The notes under the pieces were generated by a model. It was given only the letters and a program-made list of their open reading frames with translations, searched no databases and was not told where the DNA came from. 64,000 nucleotides of DNA. Origin: Eledone cirrhosa (Eukaryota). The stretch is from positions 220,100,001-220,164,000 of the forward strand of contig OZ024741.1 of NCBI GenBank assembly GCA_964016885.1, read 5' to 3'. Positions within the stretch are counted from its first letter, which is position 1; each line of letters starts with the position of its first letter. Of this stretch, positions 1,466 through 55,352 are shown piece by piece. The position numbers and the translations under genes were made by a program.

Positions 1466-2121
1466 GGTTTAGGATGGTGGTTAGGAGGAGAAAGGAAGAA
1501 AGGAGTTTCCATCGTCAGCTGTAAATCTTTCCCGGACCGATGTTTCGTCGCTGAATTACAGGACATCGGTGTATTTCGGGTGCGCCCGAGGCCTTTTATG
1601 AATCAAAAAGCCAGGTGGAAAAGTAGAGAGAAAGAGAGAAAAAAGGGGAGAAACAAGGAGTCTATGTGAGAGGCAGCACGATTATACCAACTCTGAGTCG
1701 TAGCTGACCACCAGGCTAAAGTCTCCCAGGCTGGCCACAACTTACTTTCCCTATTTTTCCATGGTTACGTTTTTGCATGTTTCTTTCACCTGTGTCTTCC
1801 CACGATGGGACCTGTACACTTTTTTTCTCCTATTCCTTTCCTATGTTCCCCTTCTTCCTCTCTCCTCATCTTTTTCCCTCCTGTTCTTCCTCCTTTCTCT
1901 CTCTTTCCTTTTCTCTCTCCTTTTTTCTCCACCTTTTTTTTCTCTTTCTCTCTCCTTTTCCACCTGGCTTTTTGATTAATAAAAGGCCTCGGGCGCACCC
2001 GAACTACACCAATGCCCTGTAATTCAGCGCCGAAACATCGGCCCGGGAAAGATTTACAGCTGACGATGGAAACTCTTTTCTTCCTTCCCCTCCTGTTCCG
2101 TCCTAACAACCATCCTAAACC
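1466..2121. repeat. (TA)n-flanked foldback cassette with ~170-190 bp diverged inverted arms (PLE-pLTR-like)
   Basis: 1466-1650 is approximately the reverse complement of 1935-2121; long (TA)n on both sides; both arms carry CTGACGA-tg-GAAAC. Confidence 0.75.
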
Positions 2122-2860
2122 TTGTTTTTAGTAACCACACAGCTCCTTTCGTTTCATAACTCTTTATATATATATATATATATATATATATATATATATA
2201 TATATATATATATATATATATATATATATATATATATTTATATATATATATATATATATATATATATATATATATTTATATATATATATATTCAAAACAA
2301 CAAACAGCGAAGGACGCGTTCCGGACTTGTCCGACAGACAACCTTTTCCCCCACCCCGGAAAAACCCCCAGTTGATGGATGTGAATCCAAAATATATAGG
2401 GACTATTAAATCTCTCCCAAGGTAACTCTCTCTTGTGTTGTTATTTTAATTTTATCCTTTATACTCTTCCCTTCATTCTACACATCTCACACATCTTATA
2501 CACACCACGCATCTCAACGTACACCTACTTACATCTCTCTCTCCACCACCGGACCATGTTACCCGGAGATTTACCCATTTGCATTGTCGAGGCTTCCAAA
2601 CGACTTAAAGATATTTACTTATTGTTCCACAATGCTTCAAGCAAACTTCAATACTCTCTTATATATATATATATATATATATACATATATATATATATAT
2701 ATATATATATATATATATATATATATATATATATATATATATATATATATATATATATATATATATATATATATATATATATACACATATATATACATAT
2801 ATATATATATATAGTGAGAGAGAGAGAGAGAGAGAGAGAGAGAGAGAGAGAGAGAGAGAG

Positions 2861-3760
2861 ATGTAGAACACTGGACTGTAATATCCGTAGTGGTAGAGCA
2901 CTCAATCAATGGGACGAGTTTTATACCGAGAACAATTGTTTCACCTGATGTGGATCTTCAGCTCAGACTGGTCATGGTTATACAGAACTGGAAGAACAAC
3001 CGTATGAACGTGCATGCCCAGAAACGGTCACTTCACCCAAGCGATACAAAACCACGGGCGAAAGGTGTAAGGGAGATAACTGCGAAAGTCCGGAATAAGA
3101 TACTCGAGTTGATTAGAAAATTAGAATGTTGTTATTCAATCCGGAGCTTTGTAGTTATGCAAGAGATGTTTCCAGACATATGGACAACGCGAGATTTCAT
3201 TTCTTGAATTTAGGCAATCGCTATTGCGTAATCTCCTTAGAATAGTTATCCTTTCTTCAATACACAGCCCACAAGACGGATTGCCCCTTGCGTATGGCTT
3301 GGACTTAGTGATGGCTTTCCATTGAATGGAGTAGTCTCTACCTGAGTCCTTGAGAGAGAATACGTGGCTCTCGCATTTCGTGGATGATCGTTTGTCCGGG
3401 TACCTAAAGGTCGACTGATGGTTCAGGAAGCGTTCCTTAAATCGGCCCTCCGCCATACCCACATAGGATTTGACCTCCTGTGGTTCATTTGATCGGTTGG
3501 AAGTGACCACAGCTTCATAAACTACAGTGGGTGTGTTGCATTACTGTTGAAGGGGTCAAGATCCAGGCTTTCGGCAAGAGCATCCTGATGGGGTGTCGCT
3601 CTTAGGACTGTTAGTGATGTGGACCTTCATATTCTTAGCGCAAGAGTACCCTAGTTTTACTTTGTGTCTGTTAAAGATGGGAAAGTGTCTATCTAAGAGG
3701 GCTAAAAAAATTATCCTACATTAGTTTTAACGTTGAGTGAGAAGGGAGGAGAGAACCAGA
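2861..3760 (-). pseudogene. 3' fragment of a Naiad-type Penelope-like element (GIY-YIG endonuclease plus pLTR)
   Basis: Minus strand reads CSCRKPGS*PLQQ*CNTPTVVYEA, YVGMAEGRFKERFLNH, CGLCIEE, CLNSRNE; upstream FNRHKVKLGYSC; has stops; abuts (GA)n/(TA)n. Confidence 0.85.
2926..2966 (-). ncRNA. Minimal type I hammerhead ribozyme in PLE pLTR
   Basis: CUGAG-CUGAAGA-u-CC acauca GG-u-GAAAC aauu GUU-CUCGG; 5-bp stem I, palindromic stem III. Confidence 0.65.
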
Positions 3761-3949
3761 TATTTTGTCGATTGTTACGATTTCTTTTTTTATTGGTGTT
3801 GTTGTTAGTGGGGTAGTAAGTAATTGGTTGCGAGAAGCCGCTGTTAGCTTACGCCGTGTTATAGTAGGGTGCCGCTCTGTCAAAGATAGCCTTATTAGAG
3901 GAGAGGTTAGAGATTCTAGTACCGACCCTCTACCGATAATGTTTTCTGA

Positions 3950-4902
3950 TATTAGGCACAAGGTCAACAATTATTTGGGGAGGGGAATGTCGATTAAATC
4001 AGCCCCAGTGCATTACGGGTACTTTAGTTCGTAGACCCCGTAAGGATAAAAAGAAAGGCTAACCTCCGAGAGATTTGAGCTCAGAACGTAAAGGGAGGTA
4101 ACTCAACGCCACAAAGCATGTTGTCTGACACTACTGATATTGTCATTCCATCGACCTTAATAATTGTACTGGTACTTTATTTTATCGACCCGATAAGGAT
4201 GAAAGGCAAAGTCAACCTCGGCGGGATTTGAACTCAGACCATAAAGGGACGTAACTTTGTTGGAAAGCATGGCGTCCGACCCTCTACCGATACTGCCAAT
4301 CCACCGCGACTTTAATAATGGTTTCTGATTTAGGCACAAGGCCGACAATTTTGGGGGGAGAGGAGAATCGATTAAATTGACCCTAGTTCGTTACTGGTGC
4401 TTTATTTTATCGACCACGTTATGTTATAACCTCGGCAGGATTTGAACTCAGAATGTAAAGGGCATAACAAAATGCCATAAAACGTGTTGTCCGACGCTCC
4501 ACCGATTACTGCCCATAATGAGATTAATTAGATAGGCCAGACGTATAACTAAAGGCTGGAGCCATTTTTGTGTTATGTCTGACAGATCAGCGTTGATCTG
4601 GGGCTACAACAACAAAAACAACAACAGCAACAACAACAACAACAACAGCAATAAAAAATAGCAAACAACATTAAGTGAGACAATATTGATTTCTATTATA
4701 GGCACAAGGCCAGTAATTTTGGGGGAAGGAAAAGTCGATTAAATCGAACCAGTACATTACTGGTACTTTATTTTATCGACCCCGTAAGGATGAAAGGTAA
4801 AGCTAACCTCGGTGCGATTTGAACTCAGACCGTAAAGCGGCGTAACTCTATGCTGCAAAGCATGGCGTCCGACGCTGTACCGATACTGCCAATCCACCGC
4901 CC
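3950..4902 (-). mobile_element. Cluster of about 4 tRNA-derived SINE copies, including a ~390-bp SINE-plus-flank tandem duplication
   Basis: Reverse complement shows B-box GAGTTCAAATCC, central GCCTTTCATCCTTACGGGGTCGATAAAATAAAGTACCAG and 3' GGCCTTGTGCC; segment ~4515-4685 recurs at ~4905-5075. Confidence 0.85.
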
Positions 4903-5469
4903 TTAATGAGATTAATTAGATAGGCCAAACGATTAACTAAAGGCTGGAACCAATTTGGTGTTATGTCTGACAGATTAGCGTTGATCTGGGGCTACAACAA
5001 CAACAACAACAACAACAACAACAGCAGCAATAACAAAATAACAAAATTACAAGCAACATTAAGTGAGATAATAACATTATAAAGAAAAACTCACAACAGG
5101 CAGTTTTGTTTTGTTTTGTCTCGATTTAGCTTTTATTTTATATTCCCCCTCTCCATTCCCTGCTCTCTAAAAAGTACATAATGGCGATATGATGTGAGTT
5201 TCGCACATTTTCACAGTAGTCTATCGTTTCATGCTATATGATGTATCGATAGAAGGCACCAGGGAACTGGTAATGTGTGTCATCTAAAGTGCAGCTCGCT
5301 GCATGTTCATCGCAGTTAATTATATAATGTCAATCAACATCAAACACAAAGAAATTGTGCAGAAACATATACTGTTATGCTAATTGCATAGTTCCTATAC
5401 TTCATAGTGTACACATGAAATACACTAAAGCTGCTGTATTGTTTATTAATATACTCAATAAAAAATGAC

Positions 5470-54135: not shown

Positions 54136-54336
54136 ATATATATATATATATATATATATATGCATGCATACATATATGTGTGTGTGTACACACAACAAAT
54201 ATATATATATACATACATATGTGTGTACACACAACAAATATATATATATATATATTTTACTCTTTTACCCTTTTACCTGTTCCAGCCATCCGGCTGAGGC
54301 CATGCTGATGTGTGTGTGTCTGTGTGTGTGTGGTGT

Positions 54337-54625
54337 GGAGGCACGTGGCCAAGTGGTAAGAGTGTTGGACTTACGATCATAATACCGTGGGTTCGATTCC
54401 TGGGCTTGCGTGTTGTGTTCTTGAGCAAAACACTTCATTTCACGTTGCTCCAGTATACTCACCTGGAAATGAGTACCAGCAATAGCTGGAGGTTTAATCC
54501 TGCGAAGAACTGGCGTCCTGTCCAGGAGGGGGGGGCTCTTGTACTCTCAGTCACTTCACGCCATGAAACCGGGATAAGCACCGGCCAAATGAGCCTTCTG
54601 GCTTAAGACAGACTTGAGACTTTTA
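54337..54625 (+). mobile_element. CORE-type tRNA SINE, near full length
   Basis: A-box TGGCCAAGTGG, B-box GGTTCGATTCC, CORE-like TTGTGTTCTTGAGCAAAACACTT; a minus-strand fragment lies near 24840-24915. Confidence 0.8.
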
Positions 54626-54740
54626 TATATATATATATATATATATATATGTATATATATATATATATACATATATATATAAAAAAAAGTCTCAAGTCTA
54701 TATATATATATATATATATATATATATATATATATATATA

Positions 54741-55148
54741 AAAGGTAAACAGAAAGAACAACACAATCGGTACAGTATATGGAAGGGATATATTAGGTTA
54801 ACGTTTGATATAGCAGGAAGAGGGTCTTAACGTTTCGGACGCTAGTCCTTCATCAGAAGAAAGAATGAAATGAGAAATAAGATAGACTGAGGGGACGGGA
54901 GGGATGGAATTGGAAAAGATGTCTTACACCCTTTCACCACTTGTTTCATTTTAATTTGTTTTCCTTCTCTTTACCCCCCCCCCCCTTTTAATGTTTTTCC
55001 ACCACTCCTCCTCACACCCTCGGAACTCTTTTCCTTCCCACTTTTCTCTTGATGAAGGGCTTATGCCTGAAACGTCGTCCCCCACCCTTCACTCTCACGC
55101 GTGAACCTAATTGTAACTCTGTTTGTACTGCACTCTTCGATATTGTTT
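54741..55148. mobile_element. (TA)n-flanked cassette of two diverged pLTR-like arms, each with a hammerhead, 3' ends outward
   Basis: HHR at 54825-54860(-) and HHR-like UUGAUGA-agggc uuau gccu-GAAAC GUC at 55049-55076(+); downstream tails are distantly similar. Confidence 0.7.
54825..54860 (-). ncRNA. Minimal type I hammerhead ribozyme
   Basis: UCUU-CUGAUGA-a-GGAC uagc GUCC-GAAAC GUU-AAGA; palindromic AACGUU stem III. Confidence 0.75.
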
Positions 55149-55258
55149 TTGTCTTTTGTTTTTAACTTATATATATATATATATATATATATATATATAT
55201 ATATATATATATATATATATATATATATATATATATATATATATAGGAAAATGTTTAA

Positions 55259-55352
55259 TCCCGACGGCAGAGCTCAAGCCGTTTCGACGGATATTTCTGG
55301 ACTAAACTAGAATTTTTAGCATGGTAAATAAATAGCCGGATTTTTCAAGGGG
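55259..55352 (-). ncRNA. Hammerhead with U3-A8 covariant core and stable stem III
   Basis: CCCC-UUGAAAA-aucCGGCUAUUU...AAAUAUCCGuc-GAAACGGC uugagcucu GCCGUC-GGGA. Confidence 0.6.

Follow-up and report, generated by a model that had tools for sequence, protein, structure and literature searches.

Head-to-head hammerhead inserts in Eledone cirrhosa join one long and one short 3' end, consistent with two-ended priming by Penelope-like elements

How does a retroelement come to lie in a chromosome as two partial copies that face away from each other? A stretch of 64 kb from the 3.0-Gb genome of the animal Eledone cirrhosa (GCA_964016885.1, contig OZ024741.1, positions 220,100,001 to 220,164,000; the window hereafter), in which (TA)n tracts are abundant, raises this question at eight places. 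An earlier note on this DNA had described the eight as inserts with a hammerhead ribozyme in each arm, the left arm being on the minus and the right arm on the plus strand, and had ascribed them to priming of reverse transcription at both ends of a DNA break, microhomology joining of the cDNAs, and one machinery common to Penelope-like elements (PLEs), their 3' stubs and non-coding retrozymes. All evidence on the inserts comes from sequence comparison of genomic copies, 12-30 of which were retrieved for most families. Two-armed inserts are built almost exclusively from one long and one short 3' end of the same family. We consider it likely, with a probability of about 0.7, that both cut strands of the target prime reverse transcription at two start sites and that the resulting cDNAs are end-joined.

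In most families the 3' end takes two fixed positions, a short and a long one, 40-110 nt apart; the tails found here measure 38-112 nt. Arm sense was defined by homology to each family. Pairing of the ends was counted in a random sample of 120 evenly spaced 10-kb stretches (1.2 Mb in total), in which sequences beside TA tracts were clustered, families with two same-strand ends were kept and 14 were typed. The array 1 family (see below), clusters resembling short interspersed nuclear elements and one family having an internal TA tract fell outside this census. Among 1055 inter-TA segments of 30-4000 nt, 842 have no typed end, 121 have one and 92 have two. The last comprise 85 same-family long+short pairs, two short+short pairs, no long+long pair and five mixed-family pairs; that is, 85 of the 87 same-family two-armed inserts follow the long+short pattern. 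In 2000 permutations the long+short count had a mean of 1.45 and a maximum of 6. Of the long+short inserts, 39 have the long end on the left and 46 on the right, and census inserts range in length from 75 to 2866 nt.

Family A, the family of the longest copy in question (19290-22663), has fixed 3' ends 87-89 nt apart. Removal of 17 duplicate or reference records from 82 left 65 for assessment, 42 of which were automatically called as two-armed with no intervening TA tract, and every one of these 42 is long+short (in this calling, as in the census, the junction is free of a TA tract by construction). The remaining 23 are single-armed, interrupted, or have arms too short or too deleted for the rule to be applied; several of them are also long+short by eye, whereas in L162 a TA tract separates two short ends, and L163 combines a long end with a partial tail. 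Family E carries an 80-nt tail on one side in 29 of 29 palindromes outside the window, retrieved with a query that favoured palindromes. The array 2 family is long+short in 5 of 11 other loci, and the array 1 family in 3 of 11 with one more nearly so. Long+short inserts within the window are those at 1465-2164, 6668-8265, 13662-13985, 19295-22665 and 53799-54135. Ten of the 14 census families have a six-base motif in the tail, 27-35 nt from the short site in seven of them and further away in three; it is absent from the other four (F10, F41, C2 and F75). The motif is a putative binding signal. The features of the window that bear on the question are listed below.

1465-1660, minus strand: family B short-end arm, by family homology; tandem unit of ~750-800 nt elsewhere in the genome.
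1509-1569, minus strand: candidate type-SGC hammerhead of family B, with blocks S, G and C.
1660-2164, plus strand: family B long-end arm with a 43-nt tail (2122-2164); 1-nt junction overlap, read by eye.
2009-2069, plus strand: right-arm copy of the candidate type-SGC motif, cleavage triplet altered.
6658-6667, no strand: left copy (10 bp) of the array 1 target-site duplication, within a Hydra-type reverse transcriptase (RT) coding piece.
6668-7611, minus strand: left arm of the array 1 retrozyme, short end, ~2.3 units.
7608-8265, plus strand: right arm of array 1, long end, tail ~55 nt; type I hammerhead at 7962-7992.
8266-8275, no strand: right copy (10 bp) of the duplication; single copy, no insert, in three paralogues.
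11403-12651, minus strand: left arm of the array 2 retrozyme, stopping 37 nt before the family short end; interrupted at 11777-12212.
12401-12334, minus strand: type I hammerhead of this arm, by descriptor match.
12649-13601, plus strand: right arm of array 2, long end, tail ~112 nt; interrupted at 13312-13499.
13662-13914, minus strand: long-end arm of a family A (Hydra-clade) stub, which runs to the recurrent 5' stop and contains a type I hammerhead (13845-13791).
13916-13985, plus strand: fold-back of the left arm (~27 nt), then a 47-nt family A short-end arm (13939-13985) whose start lies at approximately the predicted site of hammerhead cleavage.
19295-22486, minus strand: short-end arm of the long family A copy, a 5'-truncated broken open reading frame (ORF) with RT, CxCX5C linker and C-terminal GIY-YIG; hammerhead near 19392.
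22485-22665, plus strand: its long-end arm, tail 87-89 nt; 2-nt junction microhomology.
25622-25712, minus strand: long-end arm of family E (Hydra-clade) and actual left boundary of the cassette named at 25885.
25713-25945, minus strand: right flank (26066-26209), TA tract and short arm copied in inverted orientation, by apparent fold-back synthesis.
25940-25992, plus strand: family E short-end arm, by family homology.
32078-32232, minus strand: short-end arm of a family C retrozyme, type I hammerhead at 32216-32185; the next ~50 nt belong to another repeat.
32285-32480, plus strand: short-end arm of family C2, a family different from C; type I hammerhead at 32332-32360.
53799-54135, no strand assigned: two-armed long+short insert of family F60, absent from the earlier note's list.
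54741-54926, minus strand: family D arm, hammerhead core at 54856.
54927-55167, plus strand: arm of family D2, different from D; decayed core near 55050.
55246-55352, minus strand: short-end arm of family E, whose hammerhead region has a long stem II; a partner arm was not seen.

Array 1 shows that the two arms can arrive together. It interrupts the Hydra RT coding piece and is flanked by the 10-bp duplication (6658-6667 and 8266-8275), and the three best paralogues of its left flank (L346-L348) run straight into the right flank, insert-free and with one copy of the 10 bp. The arms of array 1 were thus inserted as one event with one duplication, a single case since TA tracts mask any others. 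A duplication around two outward-facing arms would imply staggered nicks that leave two 3' overhangs. The last 7 nt of the target match the RNA immediately 3' of the short start.

How far each arm reaches is equally informative. In 39 mapped family A inserts the short arm extends further 5' in 25, the long arm does so in 6, and the two are about equal in 8. In those 25, the tail is present in the long arm alone; because the short arm extends 5' of its partner while only the long arm has the tail, neither can have been copied from the other. Long arms that consist of tail only are found in L002, L011, L015, L021 and L164. Breakpoint pairs are distinct in 41 of 42 family A inserts, and the junction is therefore not inherited from a master copy. 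As the arms of one insert often overlap by hundreds of bases, the template must have been read twice. Family E arms are closer within an insert than between inserts (0.050 versus 0.164, n=21), and an arm's own partner is its best or tied match in 14 of 21 cases for family E, 5 of 10 for F10 and 4 of 6 for F9. This likeness fits one RNA or one source locus.

The joining step is less uniform than the earlier note had proposed. Family A junctions have a mean overlap of about 1.8 nt against 0.8 expected (1.76 versus 0.81 simulated; an exact re-count gave 1.82, 17 of 37 scorable junctions), and 25 of 42 show an overlap of 0-6 nt, but 17 of 42 contain 1-21 inserted bases and 6 are blunt. Read by eye, array 1 has a microhomology of 4 nt (7608-7611) and array 2 one of 3 nt. 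Together with the fold-back patches described below, the pattern resembles polymerase-theta end joining. In 12 family A inserts, 15 arm ends coincide at a palindromic hexamer that lies 166 nt upstream of the short end (13914 in the window; L259-L280). This recurrent stop may be the RNA 5' end (the transcription start), a strong stop or a palindrome-driven joint. In L277, the short arm begins at approximately the predicted cleavage site, and a few other arms end within 10 nt of it.

Together, these data suggest the following model. In AT-rich DNA, most often (TA)n, a GIY-YIG endonuclease would nick the two strands at positions about 10 bp apart, so that two 3' overhangs remain; the duplication is observed at array 1, and the enzyme is inferred. 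The short site would then be the start for one 3'-OH, and the long site, 40-110 nt downstream, the start for the other, probably through a dimer bound to a single RNA or to two RNAs from one source. Fixed ends and exclusive pairing are observed here, and priming is proposed by analogy to the Poseidon protein in vitro. Each cDNA would end early, and arm ends are indeed found at variable points or at the recurrent 5' stop. Finally, the cDNA ends would be joined, presumably by a repair pathway; the junctions do show 0-6 nt of microhomology, inserted bases or fold-back copies. Retrozymes obey the same rule, and their arms exceed one unit, as expected of a circular or multimeric RNA, the probable template.

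Self-priming, in which a single cDNA or antisense template would fold back to be copied on itself, with the endonuclease then trimming one end so that the tail becomes one-sided, accounts for several observations. Palindromic junctions and fold-back patches occur at 13916-13943, 25713-25945, L260, L277 and L029, arms of the same insert are alike, and the long arm reaches at least as far as the short arm in 14 of 39 family A inserts. Simple self-priming is excluded for the other 25 of 39, whose short arms hold 5' sequence that the tail-bearing long arm lacks, and it is at odds with tail-only arms that have no overlap to their partner and with the five mixed-family pairs. Arm extents thus refute it as a general rule, while it could apply to a minority of inserts; as the overall explanation we regard it as unlikely.

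Slightly less probable still is a head-to-head master, either an RNA holding both arms that is reverse-transcribed from one end, or a palindrome that moves as DNA in the manner of a miniature inverted-repeat transposable element (MITE). A junction hot spot in family E and several inserts of 190-191 nt with a common junction speak for such copying, but the 41 distinct breakpoint pairs in 42 family A inserts, the lengths from 75 to 2866 nt and the contiguity of the ends with RT and GIY-YIG coding sequence speak against it. A MITE with terminal inverted repeats was rejected on the same grounds, as the ends of the inserts run into RT and GIY-YIG coding sequence and their junctions vary. Two insertions independent of each other, in one TA tract or in neighbouring ones, with outward orientation following from 3' ends that abut TA, would suit the 56 of 65 single hammerheads that also have their 3' side near TA, the many single-armed inserts and, at about even odds, the mixed-family pairs at 32078-32480 and 54741-55167, but are very improbable in general given the 85 long+short pairs within families, where permutations reach 6 at most, the zero long+long pairs, junctions free of a TA tract (by construction) and the one duplication that flanks both arms of array 1.

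Two-ended priming with end joining is therefore the reading that we retain, on the strength of the 85/87 pairing, the arms that cannot be copied from each other, and the 10-bp duplication with its empty paralogues. Several points weigh against it. Priming from two strands is a conclusion from sequence comparison. A true empty allele was not recovered: of 24 listed runs from other samples none contained half of the searched words, no RNA run was among them, and no joint across array 1 was found among the 15 joints listed of 193 when contigs of four runs were aligned to 5950-11330. In the census, 107 of the 121 one-end segments have no facing same-family end within 3.5 kb; two-armed loci number 2 of 30 in family B, 0-1 of 30 in family D and 10 of 30 in family C, the last made up of 6 long+short and 3-4 apparently short+short inserts. 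Since so many one-end segments have no partner, two arms are not obligatory. The 14 census families were picked for showing two ends, and their end references come from the same sample. The likeness of arms could partly reflect gene conversion, the microhomology is modest and its BLAST-based count can inflate overlap, some family E inserts have one junction in common, and fold-back patches are present at 13916-13943 (27 nt) and 25713-25945.

As to the eight places themselves, the proposed orientation holds at all of them, but a whole hammerhead is absent from several arms: the right arm of 19290-22663 begins past the CUGAUGA half of the core, that of 13661-13986 has none, and both arms of 25885-25993 contain the GAAA half only. 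A structure-aware type I descriptor found six strict hammerheads in the window (2961, 7962, 12401, 13845, 32216 and 32332), two further mutated cores lie at 19392 and 54856, and Rfam at gathering thresholds gave no match in the window. Seven of the eight inserts sit in (TA)n, as described; array 1 sits in AT-rich Hydra RT coding sequence. Several boundaries had to be redrawn. The insert placed at 1466-2121 does have two opposed arms, but it ends at 2164 and carries, instead of a type I hammerhead, blocks in type-SGC order. The cassette at 25885-25993 keeps its orientation and forms the interior of an insert whose left end is at 25622; it looks short+short because of the inverted copy of right flank, TA tract and short arm, and was rejected as an exception, being fold-back within a long+short insert. 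The cassettes at 32078-32480 and 54741-55148, correctly oriented, each combine arms of two different families, and the second extends to 55167. The five mixed-family pairs of the census show that two RNAs can occasionally meet, perhaps at these two places too; here successive insertion is about as likely as two RNAs. Directly joined arms of different families were also seen in L244 at 6932-7200 (E+A, long+long), L236 at 5847-6049 (F9+F10) and L233 at 6522-6885 (E+F83).

The earlier note had proposed a genome-wide contrast of (-,+) with (+,-) orientations. The descriptor gave 123 matches in the 1.2-Mb sample against 3 and 3 in two shuffles, and 22 inter-TA segments had at least two matches, 19 of them (-,+), 3 (+,+) and none (+,-). 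The direction is as predicted, but the census is largely circular because single hammerheads also face a nearby TA tract, their 3' side being within 260 nt of one in 56 of 65 cases in the same sample. The contrast is nearly tautological and adds little.

Which elements are involved? The copy at 19290-22663 had been labelled a Naiad. Its minus strand encodes RT, a CxCX5C linker and GIY-YIG without CCHH, in this order, with CxxC and CxH near the end. CxxC and CxH flank a conserved E and N both in this copy and in family E locus L187, and the two share the C-terminal GIY-YIG without CCHH and the CxCX5C linker, which also occurs in 15 of 24 homologues of the family E RT. A DKT motif is seen in longer family A copies. 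RWK is found near the N-terminus in 14 of the 24 homologues; its position lies 5' of the extent of the family A copies, and a one-residue variant is present in the 14.8-16.9 kb copy. The CxCX5C linker, the C-terminal GIY-YIG without CCHH, CxxC and CxH around the conserved E and N, and DKT are among the Hydra-clade features given in the accessible text of PMC8557442; a canonical hammerhead and (TA)n targets, both seen in family A, belong to the same clade description. From motifs and domain order, 19290-22663 and family E are assigned to the Hydra clade; compared with that clade as described in the same text, families A and E are larger (>3 kb) and have a longer 3' region (>1 kb). A Naiad was rejected since RT here precedes the endonuclease, whereas the Naiad GIY-YIG is N-terminal to RT; moreover, the DKA motif and the endonuclease CCHH of Naiads were not found, and family A has a type I hammerhead (13845), whereas Naiads lack a canonical one. 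For 10 ORF pieces, no Pfam match exceeded the cut-off.

Family E continues into a Hydra-kind ORF in L187 and L225 and is therefore the 3' stub of a Hydra element. Its hammerhead (55246-55352, minus strand; L187, L225) reads as type I, its stem II loop measuring ~40 nt and its core being a U3-A8 variant; the core variant and the long loop also set family E apart from the clade as described. Family F10 continues into an ORF with a CX4CxxC linker and CCHH, a pattern that points to Neptune/Nematis. Elsewhere in the genome, arrays 1 and 2 and families B and C form tandem non-coding units, for which reason we call them putative retrozymes; the units of arrays 1 and 2 and of family C have one type I hammerhead each. 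The notion of one machinery stands to the extent that the rule is common to coding elements, stubs and retrozymes, but both arms nearly always belong to one subfamily, most loci of families B and D are single-armed, and the Naiad name does not suit the coding partners found, which are of the Hydra clade and Neptune/Nematis type. Decayed Hydra-type copies also lie at 2862-3900 (minus), 6434-6667 (plus) and 14400-16950 (minus), the first of which starts at a family F25 long end (by eye) and includes the intact type I hammerhead at 2961. Further small TA-flanked inverted cassettes, of family F28 and an E subfamily and absent from the earlier note's list, are at 17009-17244, 32481-32554 and 31905-32032.

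In twin priming of L1 elements, a second cDNA is primed by the second target strand and joined to the first with short microhomology. The internal site at which the second primer anneals varies, and the arms share no overlap. Here, by contrast, the two start sites have fixed positions close to the 3' end, and overlaps of hundreds of bases between the arms are frequent.

Insertion units with an inverted, 5'-truncated copy and a one-sided tail are on record for endonuclease-positive (EN+) PLEs (PMC8557442, PMC3846280). As far as the available text of these papers goes, the units resemble ours in their head-to-head arms, the tail at one end, (TA)n bias, 8-10-bp duplications and a hammerhead in the terminal repeat; the published tail is optional and 30-40 nt long, whereas tails here are 38-112 nt and long+short pairing is near-exclusive in most families. 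In the same accessible portions, self-priming is hypothesised as the source of the inverted shape (PMC3846280), the one-sided tail is explained by EN resolution, and the origin of tandem and inverted PLE structures is named as an open task (both PMC8557442). According to the available part of PMC11167929, the Poseidon protein PAc acts in vitro on AT-rich DNA, both strands of which are cleaved and extended (in bulk), and it uses two start sites that bound the tail; a dimer is predicted, and later steps are left open. That text does not tie the two starts to the two target strands or to the inverted shape, and PAc is a Poseidon, whereas the elements here are Hydra-clade, Neptune/Nematis-type or non-coding. 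Animal non-LTR (long terminal repeat) retrozymes have been described, in the portions accessible, as tandem non-coding units with one hammerhead each, for which PLE mobilisation is proposed (PMC7229834, 10.64898/2026.07.22.740005), and phylogeny links them to PLE pseudo-LTRs (10.64898/2026.07.22.740005). The retrozymes here share the two-end rule, the tail and the target duplication with coding PLEs, and family B differs from published ones in its type-SGC block order. In the main texts of the open-access literature searched, we found no statement of two-start, two-strand PLE priming. The inverted shape is already published; the two-start mechanism was not found in print.

The inserts favour one mechanism and exclude the published self-priming for most family A copies. 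The model predicts that opposite strands of one target use different start sites. A wider version, to which we give a little less than even odds, is that PLEs of several clades use a built-in two-start, two-strand integration, with a dimer that holds one RNA through the tail motif and assigns the short start to one cut strand and the long start to the other, and that retrozymes, including the type-SGC ones, hijack this signal. If so, the inverted pseudo-LTR would be a normal integration product, and arm divergence would date insertions as LTR pairs do. The shared two-end rule lends structural support to PLE mobilisation of animal retrozymes. Extrapolation of 85 inserts per 1.2 Mb to the genome of 3.0 Gb gives ~2 x 10^5 inserts, and the process would therefore have shaped much of the genome's microsatellite landscape.

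The ribozyme of family B deserves separate mention. With the strict descriptor, family B shows no type I fold, but its blocks occur in S-G-C order, stems I, II and III being paired. This order is a non-circular permutation of the hammerhead, and the accessible text of PMC10085705 reports no type-SGC from the genome of a known organism. An S-G-C descriptor gave 23 matches in 30 family B loci, and a tight family B pattern occurs at 590 genomic places against 0 in the control. Across 13 copies from four subfamilies, 93.7% of cells are paired (27-41% in slid controls), and two pairs have changed on both sides, which are compensatory changes at the level of subfamilies (L031-L060, L349-L354). One pairing break is common to four copies, stem II has 2 bp only and follows one extra base, Rfam with E up to 10 gave no match for family B in L034, and contigs of four runs compared with family B yielded one partial record. 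Family B is thus a candidate carrier of a type-SGC hammerhead. A loose S-G-C pattern occurs at 8557 places against 506 in the control; most of the matches listed belong to two other abundant repeats, in which no stem I pairing was seen.

Inverted repeats centred on a TA tract are present at 56331-56427 and 54610-54699. Among the fetched loci nothing else matched the arm at 56331, suggesting that flanking DNA was copied by fold-back from a (TA)n end that had broken. At 9028-10068 (plus strand) lies a broken ORF of a high-copy repeat that also occurs in related organisms; the piece scanned had no Pfam match. Long minisatellite arrays occupy 34339-38513, 57768-61213 and 61727-63011, with periods of 95, 49 and 52, respectively.

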